Origin: Candidatus Scalindua sp.
GTDB lineage: Bacteria; Planctomycetota; Brocadiia; Brocadiales; Scalinduaceae
Direction: 5' to 3'
Length of the DNA stretch: 32,000 nt
Assembly (NCBI GenBank): GCA_031316235.1
Contig: JALDRA010000001.1
Span: forward strand, 240,001-272,000
Of the stretch, positions 2,476-32,000 are shown one piece after another. The notes beneath the pieces are model-generated. The model was not told where the DNA came from. It worked only from the letters and a program-made list of their open reading frames with translations, and searched no databases. Numbering within the stretch: the first letter of the stretch is position 1; each line of letters begins with the position of its first letter. Made by a program: the position numbers and the translations under genes.

Positions 2476-2718
2476 ATGGATACGGTTCGTTTAAATGTTA
2501 CCCTTCCAAAAGAGCTGGTCCGACAGCTAGATAAGTTAGTTGGATCTAGAAAAAAGAGCCATTTTATCGCTGAGGCTTTAAAACAAAAGATTAAGAAAAT
2601 CCAGAATGAAGAACTTCAAAAACTTTTAAAAGAAGGCTATAAAGCTACCAAACAGGAGAGTCTTGGTATAGCAAAAGAGTTTGAACCCAATGACCTGGAA
2701 GGGTGGGATGAATATTAA
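2476..2718 (+). CDS. Ribbon-helix-helix (CopG/MazE-type) antitoxin
   Basis: 80 aa. The N-terminus VRLNVTLPKELVRQLDKLVGSRKKSHFIAEALKQ is a classic RHH beta-strand plus helix pattern. It overlaps the toxin start. Confidence 0.8.
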   Translation: MDTVRLNVTLPKELVRQLDKLVGSRKKSHFIAEALKQKIKKIQNEELQKLLKEGYKATKQESLGIAKEFEPNDLEGWDEY

Positions 2719-3052
2719 AAGGGGAGAAATATATCTTGCCATCCTCGATCCAGTTGTGGGAAAAGAGATTTCAAAGACCCGTCCAGTTGTCATTATTTCT
2801 AATGATAAAAACAACGAATTTTCAGGAACTGTTACTATTTTGCCTATCACCTCCAAAAATCTTCAAAAGACTTACCCCTTTGAGGTATTTTTGCCAGAAA
2901 GATCCGGAAATCTTCCCAAAAATTCTAAGGTTAAAGCCGACCAAATCCGTACACTTGATAAAGGTCGCATCGTTACCTTTTTAGGAAAACTTGAAAAGGA
3001 AAAAATGGATCAAATTGAAAAGGCCATAAAGATACATCTTGCATTGTCCTAA
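2708..3052 (+). CDS. mazF: MazF/PemK-family endoribonuclease toxin
   Basis: IKRGEIYLAILDPVVGKEISKTRPVVIISND...ILPITSK...KVKADQIRTLDKGRI is the MazF/PemK signature. I prefer ATG 2708 (MNIKRGE) over the track start 2681. It overlaps the antitoxin stop by 11 nt. Confidence 0.85.
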   Translation: MNIKRGEIYLAILDPVVGKEISKTRPVVIISNDKNNEFSGTVTILPITSKNLQKTYPFEVFLPERSGNLPKNSKVKADQIRTLDKGRIVTFLGKLEKEKMDQIEKAIKIHLALS

Positions 3053-3930: not shown

Positions 3931-4072
3931 AATGATTTCAGGATTCCTCTAAGTAATTTTTTATTCTGCTTTTGATATATCTTTTTCCCCAGGTAGTCTT
4001 AAGGTACTTCTCCCTTTTCATAGCATCATTGCCAAGCGCTCTGCATTACACTTTAGTTCATTTTAGTCACTT

Positions 4073-4093
4073 AAAAAAATTTGGTGCAGACCA
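4073..4093 (-). terminator. Weak intrinsic terminator candidate after the Wzc-like gene
   Basis: The minus strand reads TGGT-ctgc-ACCA followed by AATTTTTTT directly after the stop codon. The stem is only 4 bp. Confidence 0.3.
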
Positions 4094-6700
4094 TTATTTA
4101 TAATAATATCCCTGTCCTTTCTTTGTCTGGTTCAGGACTGCTCCTATTATCTTGGTTTGAGACTCTTTTATGCAACTTACTGCTTCATTGATACCCTTGA
4201 TAGATACTTGCCCTGGTTTTATCACAAAGATAACTCCATCTACCAATGAAAGTAAGGGTTTAAAACTACCCATCGTCTCAAGTATGGGCGGGGCATCAAC
4301 AAGCACTACGTTAAAGTGTTGCTTCAGTATGTCCAAAAACTTTCCAAGGAGTGCGAAATATGATAGACCATCAGGTTTTACACCCACGGTGCCTGCCGGC
4401 AAGAGTGATAGATTTGGTTCATCCAGGGATTGTATGTTTGAGAGTACCTCTCTTTCCAGCAAGCGGCTCCCCCCCATTCGCCCCAAACGACTGATGATTG
4501 GTGCATAATCTTCCTCAAAATGTATTCTCTCATCTTTGAAGGACTCAATGCTGCCTGGTTCATATGTAAAGGTGCCCTGTTTCCAACTAAAAAGTTTCTG
4601 AAGGAGTTCCTCCATCTGCAGTTTAAGCGGACCCTGTAATTGTCCCTGATTAATGTATCCGGCATTGAGAAGGATATATCCTAGAGGCTGACCCGTGCGC
4701 TGGTTTCGATCAAGGGAATCCTTTAACTGATTCTCGGTAATGAAATTCCCATTAAGGAGCATGGTTCCTAATCGATTACGATAAGGGACATCACGGCTCT
4801 GCAATTGAAAGAGACCTCCTTTATCAAAGACAGCCGTCATTCCTTGAGTATCATTTGTGATCGTAAGCTTACCACTCTCTTTTTTTAAAGCAATGACGGA
4901 AAATAGATCATTCACACTGTATTCATCCAGTGTCCCCTGTTCTATTTTCTGGGATAGAACCTGAGTCATAGCCGGAATAAGACCTTTTTCCCCTACACCA
5001 TTTACACTGAACATGTTATGAAGGGATGGCCGCAGTACATCAGCATCTACCATGACCACACGCAGGCCTCCCCTCGCCAGGTTAAGGGCTGATCTTGCAA
5101 GCACTGTGCTCTTACCCTCCCCGGAGGTTGAACTCTCTATCAGAAGCACATGCCCGGACATCCCGGAATGCATCAATGGGAAGCTGGGAACAAGATTGGA
5201 TGAGAAATCATATTCATAATAACCTTGTGCACGTTTCTTCTTTTCATTATGAGGCTCGTCTTCTGGCAATGCAAGTATCTTGCCCCTTTTCAGAGATTCA
5301 TCATAGGGTATCATCCCCAGTACCGCCATCCCCAGAAGCCTCCTCACATCATCCGGGGTTCTCACAGAGTTGTCCACATACTCAAAGAGAAAGGCCAGTC
5401 CCAATGCCGTAAAGGCGCCAACCACAATACCGAGTGCAACATTTACCTTCTTTCGTGGTTTAACCGGACGATTCGGAATAATCGCCTCATCTATCACACT
5501 TATGCTGGCGATCTTTTGGCGATCCATTTCATCTGAAATACGGGCCTCCTCTAATTTTCCTATATAGATTTTGTAGTTATTCTCATTAATTATTTGCTCT
5601 CGTTCCAGATCTCTGAGTCCATCTTCCCAAAGGTCAAGTGTTTGAATCTCCTTATCTAACGCCTTCAATTGCTCTTTGAATTCAGTACTTATAGCCTCCT
5701 GGGATTGGAGCAATGCCATGGCCTTAAGCGCTTCCTGTTCTTTTAAAAAATCTTTTACAAACAGGATTTCTTTTCGTACGTCAGTAACCATGCGGGAATG
5801 GTCTTTATACTGTCTTGTCAGTTCTTTTTCCCTTTGCTGAAGGCCAAACAACCTGACCCTGGCGTTGTCGATTATGTCAGATCCATCTGTTTCAGTATAA
5901 AGCGGCACATCCTCTGCATTGATTTGTGTCTTTATATTCATGGAAGTGAGTTTTTGTCGTAATTCGCCAATCCGATTTTCAGCCATCTTTAATGAGGTGT
6001 CGAATTCAATCCGCTGCCCTAGGAGAAAATTTCTCTGCTCATCAAGAGAGGAAATCTTGTATTCTTGTTTAAAGGCCTCTAATCTGCCTTCCGATTCTTT
6101 CAATATCCTTCTATAGTTCTCCAGTTTTTCCTCCAAAAAAGGAGTTGACTTTGGGTTACTAAAGGTTTGAAGATGTTTCTCTTTGAAAAGCTCAACCAAT
6201 AGATTAACAGATCTGGCTGCAATTTGCGGGTCATAATGTCGGAAGGAAACCTTAATAATACCGGAACCTTTTACAATTTCGGCTGATAAATCACGCTGAA
6301 ATCTTAATACGGCTGATTCCAGAGGGTCCACATCTGCGGGATCAGTATTTATACTATCTGGATAAATAGTTTCTAGTCCTAGCGTAGTTACAGCTTTTTC
6401 AGCAAGGTCCCGGCTGGTAATAATTTCGATCTCTGAATTAAGCATTTCTGTGCGATCAGAAGTGATTATTGGAAGATTGTCATTGCCTACTTCAGGCTTA
6501 TATATATTCTCCCTTCCCGATTTGATAATCAACCTTGTCTCGGCTTCATATATGGGGGTTTGTAGAAAAGTGTAGAGTGCAACCGTAGTTACTACGCTGA
6601 GGAAAATAACAAGGATCTTGTACTTATGCTTGAATATAACTATCAGAAAATCCATGAGAGTAAAATCATGTTCGATAGTAACCGTTTTATCTGTTTCCAT
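4094..6700 (-). CDS. Polysaccharide co-polymerase / BY-type tyrosine kinase (Wzc/GumC-like) with a ~160-aa domain insertion in the kinase domain
   Basis: 868 aa.
- N-terminal Wzz-type TM segment, long coiled-coil periplasmic region, second TM (VNVALGIVVGAFTALGLAFLF).
- Walker A SGEGKST, Walker A' VVMVDADVLRPSLH, Walker B VVLVDAPP.
- C-terminal Tyr cluster GYYYK.
- A' and B are about 245 aa apart (usually about 100) because of an insertion at aa ~586-745.
- SD AGGTGA lies upstream of the ATG. Confidence 0.85.
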   Translation of the reverse strand: METDKTVTIEHDFTLMDFLIVIFKHKYKILVIFLSVVTTVALYTFLQTPIYEAETRLIIKSGRENIYKPEVGNDNLPIITSDRTEMLNSEIEIITSRDLAEKAVTTLGLETIYPDSINTDPADVDPLESAVLRFQRDLSAEIVKGSGIIKVSFRHYDPQIAARSVNLLVELFKEKHLQTFSNPKSTPFLEEKLENYRRILKESEGRLEAFKQEYKISSLDEQRNFLLGQRIEFDTSLKMAENRIGELRQKLTSMNIKTQINAEDVPLYTETDGSDIIDNARVRLFGLQQREKELTRQYKDHSRMVTDVRKEILFVKDFLKEQEALKAMALLQSQEAISTEFKEQLKALDKEIQTLDLWEDGLRDLEREQIINENNYKIYIGKLEEARISDEMDRQKIASISVIDEAIIPNRPVKPRKKVNVALGIVVGAFTALGLAFLFEYVDNSVRTPDDVRRLLGMAVLGMIPYDESLKRGKILALPEDEPHNEKKKRAQGYYEYDFSSNLVPSFPLMHSGMSGHVLLIESSTSGEGKSTVLARSALNLARGGLRVVMVDADVLRPSLHNMFSVNGVGEKGLIPAMTQVLSQKIEQGTLDEYSVNDLFSVIALKKESGKLTITNDTQGMTAVFDKGGLFQLQSRDVPYRNRLGTMLLNGNFITENQLKDSLDRNQRTGQPLGYILLNAGYINQGQLQGPLKLQMEELLQKLFSWKQGTFTYEPGSIESFKDERIHFEEDYAPIISRLGRMGGSRLLEREVLSNIQSLDEPNLSLLPAGTVGVKPDGLSYFALLGKFLDILKQHFNVVLVDAPPILETMGSFKPLLSLVDGVIFVIKPGQVSIKGINEAVSCIKESQTKIIGAVLNQTKKGQGYYYK

Positions 6701-6722: not shown

Positions 6723-7373
6723 TTAAAAATATGCCTCTTTCACATAGACAATATCATTAGGCACAAGATTAATGTCCTGAGTCAAGTCAGTACCATTTAT
6801 AACTTCTTTTATATTCACCGGGATGATTTGCCTTGTATTATCAACATTGCGGCGTATGACTATTACTTTGCTGTGTCTAGCTGCATCTTTAAAACCTCCT
6901 GCCTGTAAGATAGACTGCAATACCGTCATGGGGCCTTCCAAATTGATCATTTGTGGCTCCTCCACTTCGCCACCCACATAAACTTTTTGTTTGGAGCGAA
7001 GAACTATTACTGTAATATCAGGTTTTTCGAGTATTTGTGAATATTTTTCCTTTAGCAGGTTTGTAAATTCTTTTACCGTCATACCGGCGGCCATGACTCC
7101 CTGTACCAATTGCAGAGAAACACGACCATCAGGCAGAACTATTATCCCTTCTCCATTTATCCCTTCTTCATTTAAATTGGGGTTATAGAAAAATTTAATG
7201 CTTAGTTGATCTCCTGGTTGGAGTAAGTATTCATCATAATTCTGGTTGTTCTGTGTCTGATCTTCTGCGGAAGAAACGTTAGTGGCTTTTTCACCTACAG
7301 CTTCAAACAATGCTTGTAAAAGCATAATAGTAATGACCACAAAAACTAGAACTGTTTTTTTCAGCATTCGCAT
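6723..7373 (-). CDS. Polysaccharide export protein (Wza-like, Poly_export + SLBB)
   Basis: Motifs include LQPGDQLSIKFF...VLPDGRVSLQLVQGVMAAGMTVKEFTNLLKEKY...ITVIV...KVYVGGEV..P....EGPMTVLQSILQAGG. Track start 7454 is a TTG. I prefer ATG 7373 (MRMLKKTVLVFVVITIMLLQALF), which gives a signal peptide. Confidence 0.85.
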   Translation of the reverse strand: MRMLKKTVLVFVVITIMLLQALFEAVGEKATNVSSAEDQTQNNQNYDEYLLQPGDQLSIKFFYNPNLNEEGINGEGIIVLPDGRVSLQLVQGVMAAGMTVKEFTNLLKEKYSQILEKPDITVIVLRSKQKVYVGGEVEEPQMINLEGPMTVLQSILQAGGFKDAARHSKVIVIRRNVDNTRQIIPVNIKEVINGTDLTQDINLVPNDIVYVKEAYF

Positions 7374-7520
7374 AAATAGTTTTGTAAGTTTGAAGCCTGC
7401 CTGTAAGTAATCATTTGTTTGCTTGCCAGGCACGCAGACGGCTTGAATTCCCAACTATATTTAGTCATTTTGTGTAAAAACTTTGCCTTATATAGTGCAG
7501 ACACAGCTCCGCCCTCTCAG

Positions 7521-7726: not shown

Positions 7727-9160
7727 TTACAAATAACATTTTAAAATGTCTCTCTGCTCTTTACCCATTTCTCTAAATTTAAACCCATATATGTACGAGC
7801 CATTATCCCTGTGCATCCACACAACTTCTGCAATCGTACTCAATCCTTTGACATTATTATTTTCAGGTAAGACTAAATTTATTTTGTGTTCACAGTTTGT
7901 CAAATATTCATCTGTCTTGGCCGCAAAACCATTAAAACTGATATTCATCAATTCGCTGGTATTGAACAGTTCCCTCTTATCAGTTTCTATCATGCATAAA
8001 ATCTTCGAACATCGGGTGTTACGCAAATAAATTCTTTTATTACTTATTTTAACCATCTTGTGCATGGGCTCCATGGGCGCTGTTTCAGTCTGCACATGAT
8101 GCCAACCTTTTTTACCCCTAACCTTAAATCTCAGTAACTTTTTTATACAAAGCGAAAAGGTAAAATGTACGATAAAAAATGCTAAAAAGATTGAAAACAG
8201 ATAATATTCGGGTATTCTGTAAATAGTACCTGCAATCCCCAGGGCCGAAAATATTGTTGTTGTTAAGGCAATAATCAAAACAACATATTTTTTCTTGAAG
8301 CCTAATCTTAATAAAATATGGTGGATATGCGACTTGTCAGCAGAGAAAGGATTTTTGCCGTTAATTATTCTCCTGAGAGAAACACTGGTAAGATCAGCTA
8401 TAGGAAAAGCGAGTATTAATAGAGGGACAAATGGCGGAACAACACTATTTTGTTTTTGACTTATAGCAATAGATAAAAAAGCCATAGAAAAGCCTAGCAA
8501 AAAGCTACCGGCATCGCCTAAGAATAATATTGATGGATTCCAGTTATATCTGAGAAAGGCAATAACACAACCGCTCAGTGCAATACTTAATAACAGATAC
8601 AAAGGCTGGTTGTTTATGTACGCAAGTATACCAAAAGATATAAAGGCAATAGTAGAAACTGTACCCACAAGCCCATCTACACCGTCAATCATATTGGTTG
8701 CGTTAATAACGCCTACAATATAAAGAATAGTCACCGGGACAGCGAAAATACCAAGATTAACTGGACCAAAAGAGAGAATATTACCAAAAGACAGCAGTAC
8801 AATTTTTCCAGAATGAATTACGATAATAGCCGTGATTATTTGCGCCAGTAATTTCCATTTGGGAGTTAGCTTTTTATAATCATCACAAAAACCTGTTAAG
8901 AGAACGATAAACATACCCACATAAAATGAGAAAATTTGTTTCGTTTCAATATACAAGAAACAACTGACAGAAAGGGATATCGCAATTGCAATGCCTCCAA
9001 TTAACGGCCTTCCAACTTTGTGAACTTTACGTTTGTTTGAATAATCCAATAAACCTATTTTATTAGCATACAAACACATTCTCGGAATTAAGATATACGT
9101 AATTACGAGAGACAACACAAAGATTTGGCAGCCACATATAACTGAAAATTGAATACCCAT
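7727..9160 (-). CDS. Polyprenyl-phosphate sugar-1-phosphate transferase (WecA/MraY, glycosyltransferase family 4) fused to a C-terminal PilZ domain
   Basis: 477 aa.
- Multi-TM N-terminal body with KIGLLDYSNKRKVH..PLIGG, NATNMIDGVDGL and GDAGS motifs.
- C-terminal ~106 aa (nt 7730-8047) carries the PilZ motifs RIYLR (RxxxR) and NISFNG ((D/N)xSxxG). Confidence 0.85.
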   Translation of the reverse strand: MGIQFSVICGCQIFVLSLVITYILIPRMCLYANKIGLLDYSNKRKVHKVGRPLIGGIAIAISLSVSCFLYIETKQIFSFYVGMFIVLLTGFCDDYKKLTPKWKLLAQIITAIIVIHSGKIVLLSFGNILSFGPVNLGIFAVPVTILYIVGVINATNMIDGVDGLVGTVSTIAFISFGILAYINNQPLYLLLSIALSGCVIAFLRYNWNPSILFLGDAGSFLLGFSMAFLSIAISQKQNSVVPPFVPLLILAFPIADLTSVSLRRIINGKNPFSADKSHIHHILLRLGFKKKYVVLIIALTTTIFSALGIAGTIYRIPEYYLFSIFLAFFIVHFTFSLCIKKLLRFKVRGKKGWHHVQTETAPMEPMHKMVKISNKRIYLRNTRCSKILCMIETDKRELFNTSELMNISFNGFAAKTDEYLTNCEHKINLVLPENNNVKGLSTIAEVVWMHRDNGSYIYGFKFREMGKEQRDILKCYL

Positions 9161-9472: not shown

Positions 9473-10219
9473 TTAAACATTCCTATGCTTGCACACATAC
9501 TCACTGATCATCTCAATATGGGTTTGTTGCATATTCTTAAAACGTACACCTGCGTATTGCCCACTGTTCACACTAACCTCCCAAACACATTCTCCACTTG
9601 CCTCAATGAGCCTTGCCCCTGCGTTTAAGCTGAAATTAATATTACAGAGTTCCTTGCCAACCATTGCAGGCCCAGTAACACTCTCTTCTTTCTTGTTAAT
9701 ATTGGGATTAATTTGATCAATCAAGATTCCCCCTACACTAAGGTTCACAATAACTGCCCTATAAGTAATCTTACCTTTACCAGAGACGTGGCCTTTAAAC
9801 TCTGTTTTTAGAGACGTGTCAACCCTTCCAAAGCATCTCCTTTTAACGTCGGTCTTGAAAGGATTCATTTCTTCAAGAATTTCCTTTTCAAACAGCAATA
9901 CAGCCTCATTAGGCTCCCGGCAATTGTATAACTTAATAATGTCCTCTTTTCCTGATATCTTGAGTAGGTTTTGTATTTCTAACCCTACATTGAATAATTT
10001 AATACACATACCACGGTTTATAAAATGTTCCAAAACATTGAGACCCAACCCATCAGCTTTTTTCGTATGTTTCAGGTTTATTATTTTTATAAATCTGCCC
10101 TCATCCAGTGATGAATACAAAAACTCTTCAAGTTGAATGGCACCTCTGCCCGTTAATTCACCATTTATCTCAAGAATCTCTATCTCTGGGTTGCTATGGA
10201 AATAAGTTGAAATCTTCAC
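9473..10219 (-). CDS. STAS (anti-sigma-factor-antagonist-like) + PilZ two-domain protein
   Basis: 248 aa with a GTG start.
- aa 1-105 are STAS-like (EILEINGELTG...IINLKHTKKADGLGLNVLEHFI...CIKLFNV..EIQNLLKISG).
- aa ~122-240 are PilZ, with RCFGR (RxxxR) and NLSVGG ((D/N)xSxxG). Confidence 0.75.
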   Translation of the reverse strand: MKISTYFHSNPEIEILEINGELTGRGAIQLEEFLYSSLDEGRFIKIINLKHTKKADGLGLNVLEHFINRGMCIKLFNVGLEIQNLLKISGKEDIIKLYNCREPNEAVLLFEKEILEEMNPFKTDVKRRCFGRVDTSLKTEFKGHVSGKGKITYRAVIVNLSVGGILIDQINPNINKKEESVTGPAMVGKELCNINFSLNAGARLIEASGECVWEVSVNSGQYAGVRFKNMQQTHIEMISEYVCKHRNV

Positions 10220-11023: not shown

Positions 11024-12568
11024 TTACGAAATTGCTTTTTTATAGATATTGTATTTTTCAATCCTACGGTTCAAGCTTGCACGGCTGATTCCCAATTCTC
11101 TAGCAGCTCTGGTTTTGTTCCATTTCTCCTTTTGAAGCATAAACCCAGTCATTTCCTTATCAGCAGTACTTATAACATCTTGGAGTTTTTTACTCTCGTT
11201 ATCGCCGCTTATAGATGGTTCCTTAAAAACCGCTTTTGTCGCTTCCAAGTAAAGGTGTTCGGGTTCGAGAGTCGGACTCCTTCTTGACATGGTAACCAGG
11301 CTTTCTACCGTATTTTTAAGTTCCCGAACATTACCCGGCCAATCATGTTCATTAATTATTTTGATCAGGTCCGGACTCAGCCTTTTCCCCCCAATATTTT
11401 TTTTATCCGTATAATATTCTAAAAAACTAAAGAAAAGAGGCTCGATATCTTCTCTCCTCCTTCTTAGCGGAGGCAATACAATTCGAAGAGTGTTAATTCG
11501 AAAGAGGAGATCTCTCCGGAATAATCCCGCTTCTACCATCTCTGATAAATCCTTATTAGTTGCAGTGATAACCCTTACATCTACCTCCCTTTCCTTAACA
11601 CCTCCTACCCTGTAAAAAGTTCCGTTTTCAAGCACTCTCAATAGCTTACCTTGTACATCGATACTTAAATCCCCTATTTCATCGAGGAACAAGGTACCAC
11701 CATCAGCCATTTCAAACAGCCCTTTTTTCTCCGTCACAGCACCGGTAAAAGCACCTTTTTCGTGTCCAAATAACTCTGAACTCAAGATCGTATCACTGAA
11801 CGAAGAGCAATTCTGTATAACAAATGCCTTATCTTTGCGAATACTGTTATAATGTACAGCAGTCGCTATGAGCTCTTTGCCTGTTCCAGTTTCTCCTAAA
11901 ATCAAAACCGGACTTTCGGAGTACTCAATCAGATCCAATTTATCAAAGATCTTTTCCATCGACATGCTTATACCAATTATGCCTTTATATTTTCCGTTAC
12001 GCCTCCTATCAATAAGGAGTGTCTGTTTCTTTATTATATTATCCTCATTAAACAAAGTTTCACAAAAAGATGAGACATCTTTTGCAACCATTTTCATAAG
12101 ACGAAGTACATACTCTTCCGTGTGACTATCAGATATCCGTATTTTATCATATCGATTCAGTACCTCAGTTTTAGAAAGACCAAGACTTGTCATTCTTCTT
12201 ATACTTTCTTCTCTTTGATCATTTGTTAATTGAAGTTGCATCCCGGAACACACCAAATAACCAAAACAATTACCCATTACAATTAATGGAACAGAAAAAA
12301 TCTTCATGTTTTCGCAATGTTTGCACACAAAGGTTTTTTGAGACCCATTTGATGCCTTGAGATTATGTGTTCGAAATACAATACACCCTTCTGCTGCTTT
12401 TTTATTTGAATGGATTAAGGAACAGAGAGGATTTTGTATTTGGGAATCATTAAATTGGCAGTTGCCAAATTCAACGTAAAAATGGGTATCAAGCCCCCAC
12501 CAATCACGGGCAATATTTCTAAATATCTTTACAACATGAGAATTAATTACCTTATTCCATTTTTCCAT
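11024..12568 (-). CDS. Sigma-54-dependent transcriptional activator (bEBP) with PocR-like Cys-rich N-terminal sensor and Fis-type HTH
   Basis: 514 aa.
- AAA+ core: GETGTGKE, the GAFTGA loop in [40 protein letters not shown].
- C-terminal HTH: [21 protein letters not shown].
- N-terminal ~170 aa (NPLCSLIHS...EGCIVFR...[30 protein letters not shown]) resemble PocR sensory domains. No receiver domain. Confidence 0.9.
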
Positions 12569-13559: not shown

Positions 13560-13967
13560 CTATAGAGTCTCAATTTTCAGACCGGGTATCTTTTTAAAAT
13601 TATCGGCGTTGCCGGTCAGCACAGCAAAACTATGGGTTATCGCCATCGCTGCAATTTGTAGATCATGGACGTTGCCAAGAGACTTGCTCCGTGGCTTCAG
13701 AAAATAGGCATATAGCACGGCATAAGTTCTGGCTACCACTTCTGAAAAGTTGAGAACAGGCACCTTGGCGACAATACCCTCGACAAAGGAGGAGCGTTGT
13801 ATCCGTACATCAGGGGACTTGGCTACATGGACACCAGCAAGTAATTCTGAAAGAGTGATAGCTGAAATATAAGCTTCACCATAATGGGAAAAAGCTGCCA
13901 GATCATTCAGATCTAACCGATCATTTTCCGCGTCAATGAAGATATCCGCATCAACAATTAATCCCAT
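13560..13967 (-). CDS. vapC: PIN-domain toxin (VapC family)
   Basis: 135 aa. The N-terminus LIVDADIFIDAEN carries the PIN acidic residue. It overlaps the upstream antitoxin gene by 10 nt. Confidence 0.85.
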   Translation of the reverse strand: MGLIVDADIFIDAENDRLDLNDLAAFSHYGEAYISAITLSELLAGVHVAKSPDVRIQRSSFVEGIVAKVPVLNFSEVVARTYAVLYAYFLKPRSKSLGNVHDLQIAAMAITHSFAVLTGNADNFKKIPGLKIETL

Positions 13968-17837: not shown

Positions 17838-19202
17838 CTAGTCCCTGTCATAAAACCACCTGACAGGTAAAATCGATTCTATCTCTTTAAACAGCCTTAA
17901 ACAATCTTCCAGATCAGACCCCAGGCAGAGAAACTGACCCTTTTGTATACCACTCTTTTCATCAAGATTGAAATTTACCGGTATAATGCCTCTTTTGAAC
18001 CCACGGTGAAAAAGTTTGCCGGCCTCTTCCAGTCTTTCCAGAATACTCGTATCCCTAAGCGGCAATATGAACCTTAGATTTCGCATTACCCATGCACCAT
18101 GCGGCATAAAATGACGCGACAGAACTGAGGGGTAGGTAGCACCCGTTACCCGTGCATTGATTTCACATGCTCTTACTTCAAAGGCACCCAGGCGATCAAC
18201 TACAAGAAAATCGATACTTGCTGTCCCCCTGTATCCCTGGTCATGTAACCATGCCGCCGCAGACGTTGACTGTCTCAACAGTTCTTCGTAAATATAATCT
18301 CCTGGAGAAAAATAGGGTGGAGGTGAAAGGTTGCCTTCATGAATACTATCACCACTCAGAATCTGTTCCGTTATGTCATACAGAGTAACCGTTTCTTCAT
18401 CGAGAAACATCTGAACACTGGGAGAACCCAAATGACGTACATTTTCAGCAGTTCCGTCAAGCCACCCCTGCACCATGCAGGGACCTTCAAAAAAAATATG
18501 CTCCGGAATATCTTTTGTACGAAAAGAAGCGGTTGGAAGCTTGATCATACCGATACCTGAAGCACCGATCTGCGCCTTCACAACTACCTCCTTATAACCT
18601 TTATTACGAAGCAGAGTAACACACGAGGAAACATCACCGGGAGCAGATGCTGAAAATGTATCAAAGACGGGGTATCCTTTTTCAGACAAATAGCGATGGA
18701 GCAGGAATTTATTATTTCCCTTCCTGCTTCCTTCAAGACTGCTTATCGTCAGTTTATTCAGGGCTTTTGCAACCTGTATCAATACCGAATCGCTCACAAA
18801 ACCATCAATCCATTCTGCATCATGTCGGCAAATTGATGCCAGTGAAGAGTTGATCTCTTCCACGTCCATTTTGTCTACATTTGGCAGAATCGTAATGTAA
18901 TCAGAGTGAGGTACAATCACTATATCAGGAAGACTCAAACCAAGCACCTCCTGAAAATAGTTCATCAAGGTCTCATCAGGAGGTTTTTCCAGGACAAGCA
19001 AATTATTCTGACCCCGGAATAAAATATCAATAATCGGGATAAGCCTGCCTCCATACGTTTCCAACCCCTCAATCTCATTTTTGAGATTCTCAATTTCTCC
19101 GCAGTTTTCAAAAAAGATAGAGAGGACGTTGGCAAAGAAAATAATACTCCGGTCCCAGAAATCCGGCAATTGACCGGTTCTTTTTTTTACTACTACCGAC
19201 AT
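17838..19202 (-). CDS. ATP-grasp ligase with pre-ATP-grasp N-terminal domain (PGM1-like peptide-ligase family candidate)
   Basis: 454 aa. Motifs KEVVVKAQIGASGIGM, SIDFLVV and ACEINARVTGATYP (ExN motif). The subfamily call is from memory of the ECNLR..GTTHP pattern and is tentative. Confidence 0.6.
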   Translation of the reverse strand: MSVVVKKRTGQLPDFWDRSIIFFANVLSIFFENCGEIENLKNEIEGLETYGGRLIPIIDILFRGQNNLLVLEKPPDETLMNYFQEVLGLSLPDIVIVPHSDYITILPNVDKMDVEEINSSLASICRHDAEWIDGFVSDSVLIQVAKALNKLTISSLEGSRKGNNKFLLHRYLSEKGYPVFDTFSASAPGDVSSCVTLLRNKGYKEVVVKAQIGASGIGMIKLPTASFRTKDIPEHIFFEGPCMVQGWLDGTAENVRHLGSPSVQMFLDEETVTLYDITEQILSGDSIHEGNLSPPPYFSPGDYIYEELLRQSTSAAAWLHDQGYRGTASIDFLVVDRLGAFEVRACEINARVTGATYPSVLSRHFMPHGAWVMRNLRFILPLRDTSILERLEEAGKLFHRGFKRGIIPVNFNLDEKSGIQKGQFLCLGSDLEDCLRLFKEIESILPVRWFYDRD

Positions 19203-26563: not shown

Positions 26564-27265
26564 ATGAGCGTTACAAAAAATACAATCGGTGTTTGCGCTA
26601 TACTTTTCATGCTCTTGTCACTGCAGTCATGCGGTGCCAAACGTTCACCGGTAGAGCAATTAGCCGCTCGGCTGAATGATGTTCCGGAGTACACGATTAT
26701 TCTGGACGATATGCAAACCGGTGGTGCTATTTTCAAACAATATTACCACAAATATAAAGTCATTATTGGTGATAAGGCGAATTACACCGGATGGGAAAGA
26801 ACATCTGAACCTTTTTATCGTCAAAATGAAAATTATCTTGGCATGGCGCTCTTATCCAAGACCGAAGAGGGTTATGTCACCAAGTCCGCCTCCCCACCTG
26901 GATTTCAATACGTTGGAAACTCTCGCTACGGTGAATGGAGAACCGACAGCTCTGGCAACTCTTTCTGGGCATTTTACGGGCAATACATGTTCATGTCCCA
27001 CATGTTTGGTATGTTTAACAGACCTGTCTATCGTAACGATTATAATACTTATACCGAATACAGAAACAGTAACAGGCCATATTATGGCAGAAATAACCAA
27101 TTTGGAACAAATGGCACGATTACAAAACAAACACATAAGAATTTCTTTGAAAGAAAGATGGCAAAACAGAAGATGGCAAAGAGGAGTTTTAAAGATAAAG
27201 TCGGGCAGAGGATAGGAAGAAGCCGTAGCCCATTCCGAAGCAGAGGAGGAGGTTTTGGTAAATAA
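26564..27265 (+). CDS. Lipoprotein of unknown function (Y/N/R-rich, C-terminal RGGGFGK tail; possibly DUF4247/DUF1190-like)
   Basis: Signal peptide with lipobox LQSC. The low-complexity C-terminal half is YRNDYNTYTEYRNSNRPYYGRNNQFG...SRGGGFGK. The stop overlaps the next start (TAATG). The family assignment is from memory only. Confidence 0.5.
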   Translation: MSVTKNTIGVCAILFMLLSLQSCGAKRSPVEQLAARLNDVPEYTIILDDMQTGGAIFKQYYHKYKVIIGDKANYTGWERTSEPFYRQNENYLGMALLSKTEEGYVTKSASPPGFQYVGNSRYGEWRTDSSGNSFWAFYGQYMFMSHMFGMFNRPVYRNDYNTYTEYRNSNRPYYGRNNQFGTNGTITKQTHKNFFERKMAKQKMAKRSFKDKVGQRIGRSRSPFRSRGGGFGK

Positions 27266-30078: not shown

Positions 30079-32000
30079 TCAATATCCGTAGTAGGTGGAG
30101 TCTTTTTTCGCCTGATTCAATATAGTGCCTACGACACGTGTATCAGACTCTTTCAGGAAATTGGCTGCTTGATTCACCATTTTGACAGAAGCATGTCCAG
30201 ACTTGACAACAAAGATTACGCCATCAACTAAAGGTAGCAATGGCCTCACACTGCCTAATGCTTCCAACAATGGCGGTGCATCTATAAGTACGATATCGAA
30301 GCGTTGTTTCAGGATATCCAATACCTTTGTAAGGAACGTAAAATACTGTGGACCTTCATTTCTCAATTCATCACTACCTGAAGTTAATAAAGAAAGGCTC
30401 AATCCCTCAATGGATTTAAGACATGAGAGAACTTCATTTTCAACCAATCTGCTGCCCACCATACGGCCCAAACGCTTGATAATGGATGAGTAATCTTCCT
30501 GGAAATGAATTCTTCTGTCCTCATAGGTCTCCACATGTCCTGGTTCGAAAGCATATTCACCCTGTTTCCAGCTGAACAACTTTTGAAGGTGTTCTTCCAT
30601 TTGAAGTTTTAAAGGGCCCTGTAATTGACTTTGATTAATATAGCCTGAGTTAATGAGAATATATCCCATAGGCAGACCGGTACGTTTGTTTCGATCCAGG
30701 GCATCTTTCAATTGATTCTCGTCAATAAATCCACCGCGAAGAAGCATTGTTCCCAACCGATTGGCAAAGGGAACTTCCTGGCTCTGGAGGTGAACCAGCC
30801 GGCCATTTTCAAAGACAACAGTCATAGCTTGAGAATCATCTTTTACCACAAGTTTTCCACTCTGCTTTTTCAAAGAAATAAGAAAGAACAGATCATCGAT
30901 ACTGCACGTATCTAAAGTCCCATGATCCAGGTTCTTTGACAGTATCTTTGTCATAATATTCAACAATCCATTCCGATTCCCATTATCTAAACCAAACTTG
31001 TTATGCAGAGACGGCCGTTGCAGATCTGCATCAACCATTGCTACACGCAGCCCGCCCTTTGCCAGATTTATGGCTGAATTTGCAAGTACTGTTGTCTTTC
31101 CTTCACCAACAGTTGCACTTTCGATCAAGAGTATTTGTCCAGACATCCCCGATTCCAGGAGAGGCAATCCGCATATCAGACTACTTGAAACATTATAATA
31201 TCTCCCACTTCTCACCTTGTCTTTCTTCTGCTCGTTAAGTTTCAACTGGGACCCATTCGTCGGTAAAACAAGCGACTCTGTCCTGTTCAGATACCTGTTA
31301 TATGGTAACATGCCTATAACAGGCAGTTCAAGATGCTGCATGATGTCCTCTGGAGTCCTGATCGTTTTGTCCATATATTCAATGAAAAAAGTAAATCCCA
31401 AACCAAAAAACAGCCCCATGACTACAGCCAGTGAAATATTAAAGATAACATTTGGTTTGACAGGCAGACGGGGAATAACCGCAGCATCAACGATGCTGAT
31501 GTTTTGGCTCTCCATATTGCCAGTAAGATTGATTTCTTTGGCTTGTTTCAGCAGGATATCATAAATTGCCTTATCACTTTCCGCCTCCAATTCCAACATA
31601 CCATAATTTGTAAACTTACCATCATACAAATCAGCCTGCGAATCCTTCTCCGCCAGAATCTGTGTTTCAGTGCCCACATCAACCACTGCTCGGTCTAATT
31701 CTATCCTCATCGACTCTTTTAACCGACCCGCTTCATCAACAATACTCTTTTCCAGCTGGCTTATGCTTGAATCAATCTCAATGATCTTTGGATGCTTAGG
31801 ACCATACTTGGTATTCAGCTCCATTTTATTCGTCCTTAGCTGAACTAATTGTCTGCGCAGATCCTGGATGACATAGTGGTCTTTCACTTCCGGCAACGCG
31901 AAAAAACTGTCACTATCCACTGGATGGAAATCAATCTCATTAAATTCAAATTCGCTGATTGAAAGGATAGACTTTGCAAGCTTAATTTTATGATCTCTCA
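30079..32000 (-). CDS. Second polysaccharide co-polymerase / BY-kinase paralogue with the same kinase-domain insertion; 5' end lies beyond the right edge
   Basis: The track starts it at a GTG (31920), but the frame stays open to nt 32000 (my translation ...RDHKIKLAKSILSISEFEFNEIDFHPVDSDS...).
- Walker A VGEGKTT, A' VAMVDADLQRPSLH, B IVLIDAPP, Tyr tail STYYGY.
- The insertion (aa ~332-492 of the listed ORF, nt 30445-30927) is collinear with that of 4094..6700. Confidence 0.85.
   Translation of the reverse strand, partial: RDHKIKLAKSILSISEFEFNEIDFHPVDSDSFFALPEVKDHYVIQDLRRQLVQLRTNKMELNTKYGPKHPKIIEIDSSISQLEKSIVDEAGRLKESMRIELDRAVVDVGTETQILAEKDSQADLYDGKFTNYGMLELEAESDKAIYDILLKQAKEINLTGNMESQNISIVDAAVIPRLPVKPNVIFNISLAVVMGLFFGLGFTFFIEYMDKTIRTPEDIMQHLELPVIGMLPYNRYLNRTESLVLPTNGSQLKLNEQKKDKVRSGRYYNVSSSLICGLPLLESGMSGQILLIESATVGEGKTTVLANSAINLAKGGLRVAMVDADLQRPSLHNKFGLDNGNRNGLLNIMTKILSKNLDHGTLDTCSIDDLFFLISLKKQSGKLVVKDDSQAMTVVFENGRLVHLQSQEVPFANRLGTMLLRGGFIDENQLKDALDRNKRTGLPMGYILINSGYINQSQLQGPLKLQMEEHLQKLFSWKQGEYAFEPGHVETYEDRRIHFQEDYSSIIKRLGRMVGSRLVENEVLSCLKSIEGLSLSLLTSGSDELRNEGPQYFTFLTKVLDILKQRFDIVLIDAPPLLEALGSVRPLLPLVDGVIFVVKSGHASVKMVNQAANFLKESDTRVVGTILNQAKKDSTYYGY

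Follow-up and report, generated by a model that had tools for sequence, protein, structure and literature searches.

A PATAN module with a nested, predicted c-di-GMP-binding MshEN_N unit interrupts the kinase domain of a Wzc-like protein in Candidatus Scalindua

Introduction

Can the biofilm signal cyclic di-GMP (c-di-GMP) act directly on the tyrosine kinase of an exopolysaccharide export system? This question is raised by a gene at positions 4094–6700 (minus strand) of a 32,000-nucleotide stretch of the genome of Candidatus Scalindua sp. (GenBank assembly GCA_031316235.1, contig JALDRA010000001.1, positions 240,001 to 272,000; the whole stretch is referred to below as the window). As recognised from its open reading frame (ORF) and from Pfam and NCBIfam matches, the gene encodes an 868-residue Wzc-like polysaccharide co-polymerase (PCP) joined to a bacterial tyrosine (BY) autokinase, and the P-loop domain of the kinase is split by an inserted module of ~168 residues. 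An earlier note on this DNA, made from the letters alone, had proposed that the insert joins a DUF4388/PATAN-like domain to a near copy of the tandem c-di-GMP-binding motif of MshE. Here we report that the inserted module is a PATAN domain with an MshEN_N unit nested inside it, that it occupies the same point of the kinase domain in many other bacteria, and that, to judge from the sequence, c-di-GMP may switch the kinase directly.

To our knowledge, direct control by c-di-GMP is found in synthase-dependent polysaccharide systems (PilZ in BcsA and Alg44, PelD, PgaCD and NfrB), and the known c-di-GMP inputs to pathways of the Wzx/Wzy/Wzc type are mainly transcriptional. Few of the signals that feed the ring cycle of BY-kinases are known, and we know of no characterised c-di-GMP receptor in anaerobic ammonium-oxidizing (anammox) bacteria. 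BY-kinases time the polymerisation and export of polysaccharides through a ring assembly cycle that is coupled to phosphorylation (PMC9800525), and the aggregation and granulation of anammox bacteria, which are linked to c-di-GMP, matter for wastewater treatment (PMC13188143).

Results

We located the insertion by aligning the cytoplasmic domain with insert-free BY-kinases and with Wzc of Escherichia coli K-12 (sequence from NC_000913). Residue i of the protein corresponds to nucleotide 6700-3(i-1), and all parts of the gene described here lie on the minus strand. Pfam detected the P-loop families ParA, CbiA and AAA_31 in two separate pieces (residues 517–579 and 784–861), with DUF4388/PATAN (PF14332) between them (residues 588–719), and the alignment placed the whole insert in one clean gap of ~168 columns (residues 581–748, positions 4457–4960). 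The insert is preceded by GLIPAMTQ (residues 573–580), the last residues of the first half of the kinase domain (residues 517–580, positions 4961–5152), which comprises the alpha4 and alpha5 equivalents and is supported by alignments and by phmmer matches to CapB, VpsO, Etk and Wzc; it is followed by EREVLSNIQSLDEPNLSLLPAG (residue 749 onward), with which the second half begins (residues 749–868, positions 4097–4456; alignments and phmmer). In Wzc numbering, verified in the alignment on R490, K540, Y569, E572, I592 and D642, the insert lies between G588 and Q589, at the junction of alpha5 and L-alpha5, and enters three residues ahead of the I592 equivalent. The end of Walker A′ and the start of Walker B are 243 residues apart in this protein and 240–247 residues apart in other insert-bearing relatives, compared with 72–74 residues in insert-free kinases, which confirms the split P-loop and the long distance between the two motifs described in the earlier note. 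The range given there for the insert, 4466–4945, corresponds exactly to residues 586–745, and the insert defined by the alignment is slightly wider.

Profile searches identified both components of the inserted module. DUF4388 matched with 65.9 bits against a gathering score of 25 (E = 4.6e-18), and the NCBIfam model NF053729, 'cyclic di-GMP-binding domain, MshE-related', matched residues 643–690 with 44.5 bits against a curated cut-off of 38 (E = 1e-11), so that the proposed PATAN identity and the proposed near-match to the tandem motif of MshE both stood; weaker NCBIfam matches were to the c-di-GMP-activated glycosyltransferase NfrB. In phmmer searches against the sequences of the PDB, the insert matched PilF (4e-8) and MshE (5HTL, 2.2e-4), the motif being in register with MshE residues 6–62. 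The 53-residue tandem motif, MshEN_N or 'alpha-clip' (residues 643–695, positions 4616–4774; recognised from the translation, NF053729, phmmer and Foldseek), reads RLGTMLLNGNFITENQLKDSLDRN-QRTGQ-PLGYILLNAGYINQGQLQGPLKLQ and consists of two 24-residue motifs of the form RLGxx[LVI][LVI]xxG[LVI][LVI]xxxxLxxxLxxQ (motif I, 4703–4774; motif II, 4616–4687) at an exact spacing of five residues (4688–4702). This sequence had been read correctly before, at positions (4619–4777) that are one codon off. The profile check recommended earlier was thus significant for DUF4388, whereas the Pfam family T2SSE_N (PF05157), named alongside it, gave no match at E≤1, and after helix 4 the chain goes back to a PATAN strand; by its sequence, we assign the module to the 'MshEN_N only' class, without the T2SSE_N1 subdomain.

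The arrangement of the two components was apparent from AlphaFold2 models. The cytoplasmic domain, modelled from a 38-sequence alignment, had a mean predicted local distance difference test score (pLDDT) of 84.5 and a predicted template modelling score of 0.81, and the insert modelled by itself had a pLDDT of 84.6. Secondary structure assignment with DSSP showed one strand, one helix and three further strands, then four helices (insert residues 55–119), and lastly a strand, a low-confidence loop and a helix, with the four helices placed between strand 44–50 and strand 125–130 of the insert. The N-terminal part of the PATAN domain (residues 586–640, positions 4781–4945), in which the DUF4388 profile begins at residue 588, is thus strand-helix-strand-strand-strand, and the C-terminal part (residues 696–748, positions 4457–4615; model and alignment) holds the end of helix 4, the strand, the low-confidence loop and the helix. 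The helical unit of the predicted model superposed on MshE with bound c-di-GMP (5htl_B) with a root mean square deviation of 1.4 Å over 54 columns (33% identity, Foldseek probability 1.0; the E-value of 0.18 reflects the shortness of the match) and on the GSPIIA domain of PilF with 2.0 Å. The PATAN sheet had no significant relative in the PDB (Foldseek; best E 0.12, actin-like subdomains, probability 0.44). In the model, therefore, the MshEN_N unit is nested inside PATAN, and the two make up one composite, a PATAN domain with an alpha-clip, rather than a PATAN domain followed by an MshEN-like unit as the earlier note had it; a PATAN strand and helix come after the bundle. A study of PATAN in Synechocystis (bioRxiv 10.1101/2021.06.11.447907, citing Makarova et al.) states that PATAN domains often hold two helical-hairpin repeats, termed 'alpha-clip', and that the ATPases of type II secretion and of type IV pili carry the same repeats N-terminally. 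The alpha-clip is the element later named MshEN_N.

We also considered that the DUF4388 match could be driven by the helical motif alone. This was rejected: the profile match begins 55 residues before the motif, the sheet is present in the model, and PATAN-only proteins align over query residues 89–250. These stand-alone PATAN proteins match only the insert, and the exhaustive search described below returned free PATAN proteins with near-perfect MshEN motifs (e.g. P0165 and P0168). Around the end of helix 4, in the C-terminal part of PATAN, lies the signature EExLQKLFSWKxGxFxF, in which E198, E199, F205 and S206 (query numbering) are invariant columns of alignment A1.

We next surveyed the distribution of insert-bearing kinases. 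A word-indexed protein search returned 37 close homologues, all with PF14332 and the P-loop families, and a scan with one genome per species gave 34 loci. These are from anammox Brocadiales (Scalindua, Brocadia, Jettenia, Kuenenia, Anammoxibacter and Loosdrechtia), from Desulfobacterota (Desulfosarcina variabilis, Desulfosudis oleivorans and Desulfatitalea) and from metagenome-assembled genomes of Nitrospirae and Deferribacteres; among the carriers, Ca. Brocadia pituitae and Desulfosarcina variabilis are represented by complete genomes. The protein of Ca. Scalindua sp. RBC_AMX3 (locus L001) is 95% identical over the cytoplasmic domain and 93% identical over its whole length. Scalindua genomes have two or three copies, and the window itself contains a BY-kinase paralogue that also bears the PATAN/MshEN_N insertion, whose N-terminus is cut by the window edge (30079–32000, minus strand; Pfam GNVR, P-loop and DUF4388, the last at 1.9e-21) and whose tandem motif, RLGTMLLRGGFIDENQLKDALDRN-KRTGL-PMGYILINSGYINQSQLQGPLKLQ, has the canonical Gly in motif I (RLGTMLLRGGF). 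Two insert-bearing kinase genes likewise lie ~25 kb apart on one contig of Scalindua SCAELEC01 (L010 and L020).

Searching 1.84 billion representatives exhaustively with HMMER yielded 33,381 matches at E≤1e-3, and the order kinase-insert-kinase was present in 75 of the best 150 matches (clusters at 50% identity), so that the family comprises at least 75 clusters. Among these 75, 33 are fused proteins (≥700 residues), 38 are stand-alone kinases (<500 residues) and four are of intermediate length; the stand-alone forms are 21–35% identical over the aligned domain, have the same insertion point, and their genes directly follow a Wzz/GNVR gene and a Poly_export gene. When 39 diverse members were examined, all matched the DUF4388 and BY-kinase models, and 31 matched NF053729. 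In the databases these proteins are entered as 'DUF4388 domain-containing', 'P-loop NTPase' or 'Mrp family ATPase', and a profile search of the word-indexed database with alignment A2 returned mostly ordinary BY-kinases. The survey of homologues suggested in the earlier note therefore found the same insertion point in 34 genomes and in no fewer than 75 protein clusters. Because the insertion point is shared, the family looks, from its sequences, like the product of an old single capture that later diversified.

Because the window and most of the close homologues derive from metagenome-assembled genomes, and many of the database entries cover only fragments, the insertion could be suspected of being an artefact of assembly or annotation, or else a recent and decaying domain capture without function. 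We find this hardly credible: the frame is open over 868 codons, the insertion point is constant in 34 species genomes from several phyla, two of them complete, fused and stand-alone forms both occur, at 25–75% identity, and no part of the domain is more conserved than the insert, which recurs in the paralogue of the same window. Misassembly or a fused-gene artefact is ruled out by the conservation across genomes.

We then compared the predicted ligand site with that of MshE, using the 14 key residues highlighted by Wang et al. (PMC5013675). Eleven of them are identical in the window protein. The three differences, G18 to Asn (with a Gly just before it), Q32 to Asn and R38 to Pro, are those that the earlier note had correctly listed as a shifted Gly, a Q-to-N change in the first copy and an R-to-P change in the second. 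Among 38 relatives, the site is strongly conserved (G11 in 35/35, G40 in 38/38, L25 in 37/37, R9 in 33/34, L39 in 37/38, G47 in 37/38 and Q61 in 36/38, with a Gly at the G18 position in 31/37), and two of the substitutions are themselves kept, with N at Q32 in 29/38 and P at R38 in 36/38. Overall, MshEN_N is the most conserved segment of the cytoplasmic domain, with a mean majority frequency of 0.84, whereas the kinase halves and the PATAN sheet have 0.63–0.69. The relaxed motif of Wang et al. (PMC5013675) admits P and N at the deviating positions. In motif I of E. coli NfrB, positions 1, 10 and 24 are occupied by P, Q and R, respectively (alignment in the supplement of Wang et al.), and NfrB shows specific binding of c-di-GMP with a dissociation constant of 1 µM (PMC8669469). 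Because NfrB binds despite comparable deviations, c-di-GMP binding is likely here as well, and the nested bundle would likely bind one c-di-GMP.

The same residues could, however, have been kept for the fold or for an interface, in which case the PATAN/alpha-clip insert would serve to dock another protein onto the kinase rather than to sense a nucleotide; it might recruit the STAS-PilZ protein or the GT4-PilZ transferase encoded upstream (see below), a phosphatase or a small GTPase. The only role described for PATAN by experiment is indeed partner binding, since in PixE the PATAN domain is sufficient to bind PilB1 and PilC and to switch phototaxis (bioRxiv 10.1101/2021.06.11.447907). Moreover, EExLQKLFSWKxGxFxF, the strongest signature of the family, falls outside the c-di-GMP motif, 8 of the 39 wider family members score below the model for that motif, and no cyclase or phosphodiesterase gene was found nearby with a crude regular expression for GGDEF and HD-GYP that left EAL unscored. 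We nevertheless regard this reading as rather unlikely, given that the positions of the c-di-GMP contacts of MshE hardly vary, including the two Gly whose backbone amides read the guanine, that MshEN_N is more conserved than either the PATAN sheet or the kinase, that NF053729 scores above its curated cut-off, and that the operon also encodes two PilZ receptors, a sign that c-di-GMP controls the pathway. Docking and sensing are also compatible, as partner binding could depend on the ligand.

The motifs of the kinase domain were read from the alignment with Wzc. Walker A, SSTSGEGKST (GEGKS, residues 527–531), agrees with GX5GK[ST], and its K530 aligns with Wzc K540. In Walker A′, VVMVDADVLRP (residues 548–558), both Asp align with Wzc D562 and D564, and the Arg stands one position later than in phi4-DXDXR (DADVLR compared with DCDMR in Wzc), a shift that is kept in the close family as DADLQRP. 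Walker B, VVLVDAPP (residues 798–805, positions 4286–4309), agrees with phi4-DX2P and aligns with VLIDTPP of Wzc. The Walker A Lys, the pair of A′ Asp and the Walker B Asp are present and conserved, and the protein ends in ...KKGQGYYYK, a C-terminal tyrosine cluster (Y865–Y867, positions 4100–4108). This tail thus holds only three tyrosines, whereas insert-bearing relatives have a median of 4, and as many as 10, within their last 25 residues. The EX2RX2R O-motif of helix alpha2 is not present: SSNLVPSFPLM stands in place of EAIRSLR of Wzc (positions 5150–5240, residues ~487–517), and the motif is also absent from the close relatives in the Scalindua/anammox clade. More distant insert-bearing members have the O-motif (e.g. 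P0083 and P0087), Walker A′ in its canonical form and rich tyrosine clusters.

These departures from Wzc leave room for a different protein altogether, a MinD/ParA-like ATPase switch or a pseudokinase scaffold, in which the insert would regulate an ATP-dependent assembly and not phosphorylation. It would account for a clade without EX2RX2R, the builder of the Wzc/CapB ring (PMC9800525), for DADVLRP in place of DxDxR in Walker A′, for the short tyrosine tail, and for the scores of the BY-kinase NCBIfam models, all of which are below their curated cut-offs (TIGR01007, 76.3 bits against 108.05). The low scores, however, are explained by the 168-residue insert, which splits the match, and the catalytic Lys and Asp residues of all three Walker motifs are conserved, the C-terminal YYY is kept, and the distant members combine the same insert with the O-motif and rich tyrosine clusters. 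In addition, the top PDB matches of the cytoplasmic model in Foldseek are Etk, CapAB, BceF, Wzc and VpsO (E about 2e-7 to 3e-5, target-normalised TM-score 0.54–0.71), and not MinD or ParA. Because the best PDB matches are all BY-kinase domains, the kinase fold closes around the insert. The AlphaFold check of an independent fold, as advised in the earlier note, thus came out in favour of one, with the insert folding by itself and the core still matching Etk, CapAB, Wzc and VpsO. We conclude that the kinase domain is intact and consider an ATPase switch or a pseudokinase improbable.

Outside the kinase domain, the protein has the layout of a PCP. The N-terminal Wzz/GNVR region (residues 13–466, positions 5303–6664, minus strand) matches Pfam Wzz (residues 13–106) and GNVR (residues 374–438) as well as, with scores below the NCBIfam cut-offs, TIGR01005, TIGR03007 and TIGR03017, and two hydrophobic segments read from the translation, ILVIFLSVVTTVALYTFL and VNVALGIVVGAFTALGLAFLF, border it. 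From its sequence, the product is predicted to be the inner-membrane PCP/BY-tyrosine autokinase of a Wza-Wzc-type exopolysaccharide export system. The G+C fraction over the kinase gene (window 4001–6000) is 0.433, compared with 0.37–0.39 in the neighbouring 2-kb bins.

Four genes lie upstream of the kinase gene in the same orientation. The first encodes a short Wza-like outer-membrane polysaccharide export protein of 243 residues (6723–7454, minus strand; Pfam Poly_export, SLBB_2 and SLBB), and 20 of the 34 related loci, of which several end before the flanks, have a Wza-like gene immediately upstream of the kinase. E. coli Wza has 379 residues (L039, 6105–7244), and the window protein probably lacks the C-terminal part of Wza; in the stand-alone-kinase loci L035 and L037, a separate BBP2_2 beta-barrel gene lies beside the export gene. 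Next comes a GT4-family (WecA-like) priming glycosyl-phosphate transferase with a C-terminal PilZ domain (7727–9160, minus strand; Pfam Glycos_transf_4 1.2e-39, PilZ 1.5e-7; motifs RIYLR ... NISFNG in the translation), with orthologues in L001 and L020. Because RxxxR and NxSxxG are intact in the PilZ domain of this priming transferase, its sequence suggests that c-di-GMP controls the initiating step. It is followed by a small STAS-like protein with PilZ (9473–10219, minus strand; Pfam PilZ 2.2e-6, STAS 8.4e-4 and below threshold; motifs RCFGR ... NLSVGG in the translation), orthologues of which lie beside the kinase in L004, L015, L018 and L020. At the head of the gene group is a sigma-54 enhancer-binding activator with a PocR sensory domain (11024–12568, minus strand; Pfam Sigma54_activat 9.5e-65, PocR and HTH_8), with orthologues in L015, L018 and L020.

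The full upstream gene set recurs in Scalindua (L020), the pair of activator and STAS-PilZ protein recurs in Brocadia (L015 and L018), and a pair of REC-PilZ protein and activator precedes the stand-alone insert-bearing kinase of L035. Both PilZ domains of the window keep RxxxR and [D/N]xSxxG, and the two PilZ proteins together with the kinase insert therefore make three predicted c-di-GMP receptors at the locus. As judged from these domains, the STAS-PilZ protein and the activator may provide a c-di-GMP-responsive partner-switching input to transcription. The sigma-54 promoter motif TGGCAC-N5-TTGC gave 20 matches compared with 21.8 expected, none of them convincing upstream of the operon, and no Wzb-type phosphatase adjoining the kinase was recognised among the ORFs of at least 120 residues. 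No Wzx, Wzy or further glycosyltransferase gene adjoins the kinase either, so that the locus appears to be a regulatory and export core set apart from the rest of the pathway. Toxin-antitoxin-type genes, encoding two PIN-domain proteins and a MazF/PemK toxin, flank the polysaccharide group (952–1338, 2681–3052 and 13560–13967), and the ORFs at 17838–19202 (minus strand, 454 residues) and 26564–27265 (plus strand, 233 residues) had no Pfam match at E≤0.01.

Discussion

From the identity, insertion site, conservation and gene context of the module, we infer ligand binding and an effect on the kinase cycle. The catalytic domains of Wzc form an octameric ring in which EX2RX2R of alpha2 contacts alpha7 and alpha9 of the next subunit; trans-phosphorylation of the tyrosine cluster dissolves the ring and dephosphorylation restores it (PMC9800525). 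In simulations and by nuclear magnetic resonance, alpha4 (Y569 and E572) and L-alpha5 (I592) of Wzc differ between the open and the closed state, and their displacement is coupled to the alpha7-alpha9 oligomerisation face (PMC11206214). We propose that binding of c-di-GMP would change the shape or position of the inserted module. Alpha4 and L-alpha5 would move as a rigid body between an open state, which is nucleotide-exchanging and monomer-like, and a closed state, which is competent for ring formation and catalysis, and, because the insert enters three residues before the I592 equivalent, the ligand could shift the balance of the two states at this hinge. Such a shift would influence how nucleotide is bound, how the ring assembles and how far the short C-terminal tyrosine tail is autophosphorylated in trans, and high c-di-GMP would thereby gate polymer export post-translationally, with the GT4-PilZ transferase and the STAS-PilZ protein acting in parallel.

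Several points weigh against this proposal. In addition to the three differences from MshE and to the eight wider family members that NF053729 missed, Asp108 of MshE, which lies in the C-terminal subdomain that is absent here, also contacts the ligand (PMC5013675). The conserved Leu and Gly residues might instead have been kept for packing or for binding a partner. In the literature searched, we found no report of c-di-GMP binding by any PATAN alpha-clip, and the crude expression for GGDEF and HD-GYP, with EAL unscored, found no such ORF in the window or in 38 related loci. Further, because EX2RX2R is absent, Walker A′ reads DADVLRP and the tail has three tyrosines, the Wzc ring cycle may not apply as such, and the anammox proteins may assemble differently from Wzc, possibly via the insert. 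Taking these points together with the conservation of the site, we judge the case for a nested MshEN_N insert that binds c-di-GMP, biases kinase conformation, ring assembly and autophosphorylation and so gates export to be about evenly balanced.

A wider proposal can be put forward tentatively and with some doubt. The insert-bearing proteins would form a distinct class of second-messenger-gated tyrosine kinases, in which c-di-GMP sets the open or closed state, oligomerisation and autophosphorylation via the insert at L-alpha5, which would give c-di-GMP a direct post-translational input to Wzx/Wzy-type export. They would also be a receptor behind the aggregation of anammox bacteria and sulfate reducers, and PATAN alpha-clips, including those of PatA-type regulators, would generally be c-di-GMP receptors. 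The family is concentrated in anammox bacteria and is thus relevant to their aggregation and granulation, and a module at the open/closed hinge offers a concrete route for c-di-GMP onto the kinase itself. If true, this would be a natural case of domain insertion, with a sensor placed within an enzyme at an allosteric hot spot, and, should the alpha-clip bind c-di-GMP in this protein, the many PATAN regulators of motility and development would merit re-examination.

In the literature searched, we found no description of DUF4388/PATAN or MshEN inside a tyrosine kinase or Wzc, and no paper pairing DUF4388 with a tyrosine kinase, which argues that the insert is not an already characterised BY-kinase subdomain, an outcome that the earlier note had left possible. 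What is new is the host enzyme, the nested topology and the insertion site; the sensor unit and the enzyme family are already known, and the link between MshEN_N and BY-kinases is foreshadowed by EpsG of Methylobacillus sp. 12S (MshEN_N-AAA_31; Wang et al. 2016, Supplementary Table 4). EpsG also combines MshEN_N with a BY-kinase at an exopolysaccharide locus, with a predicted role for the ligand, but its motif is an N-terminal extension without PATAN, whereas that of the Scalindua protein is nested in PATAN and lies between Walker A′ and Walker B. The PatA-type regulators (PatA of Anabaena; PixE, PixG and LsiR of Synechocystis) have the same composite of PATAN and alpha-clip, fused to REC; they are soluble response regulators whose PATAN binds the pilus motor proteins PilB1 and PilC, and none is embedded in an enzyme or tied to polysaccharide export. 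MshE, PilB, PilF and NfrB share the tandem 24-residue motif, the five-residue spacer and the four-helix bundle, and in NfrB the motif allosterically switches a polysaccharide enzyme and variants with P, non-Gly and non-Gln residues still bind; in the Scalindua protein only the MshEN_N half is present, and the host is a P-loop tyrosine kinase and not a secretion ATPase or a GT2 synthase. Finally, Wzc/Etk of E. coli, CapAB of S. aureus, VpsO of V. cholerae and BceF of B. cepacia share the PCP-2a layout of Wzz and GNVR, two membrane segments, cytoplasmic kinase, Walker motifs and tyrosine tail, as well as a neighbouring Wza-like gene, and the Scalindua protein differs from these canonical BY-kinases in its 168-residue insert at the alpha5/L-alpha5 junction, the absence of the O-motif, the shifted Arg of Walker A′, a tail of three tyrosines and, among ORFs of at least 120 residues, the lack of a recognised Wzb-type phosphatase next to it.

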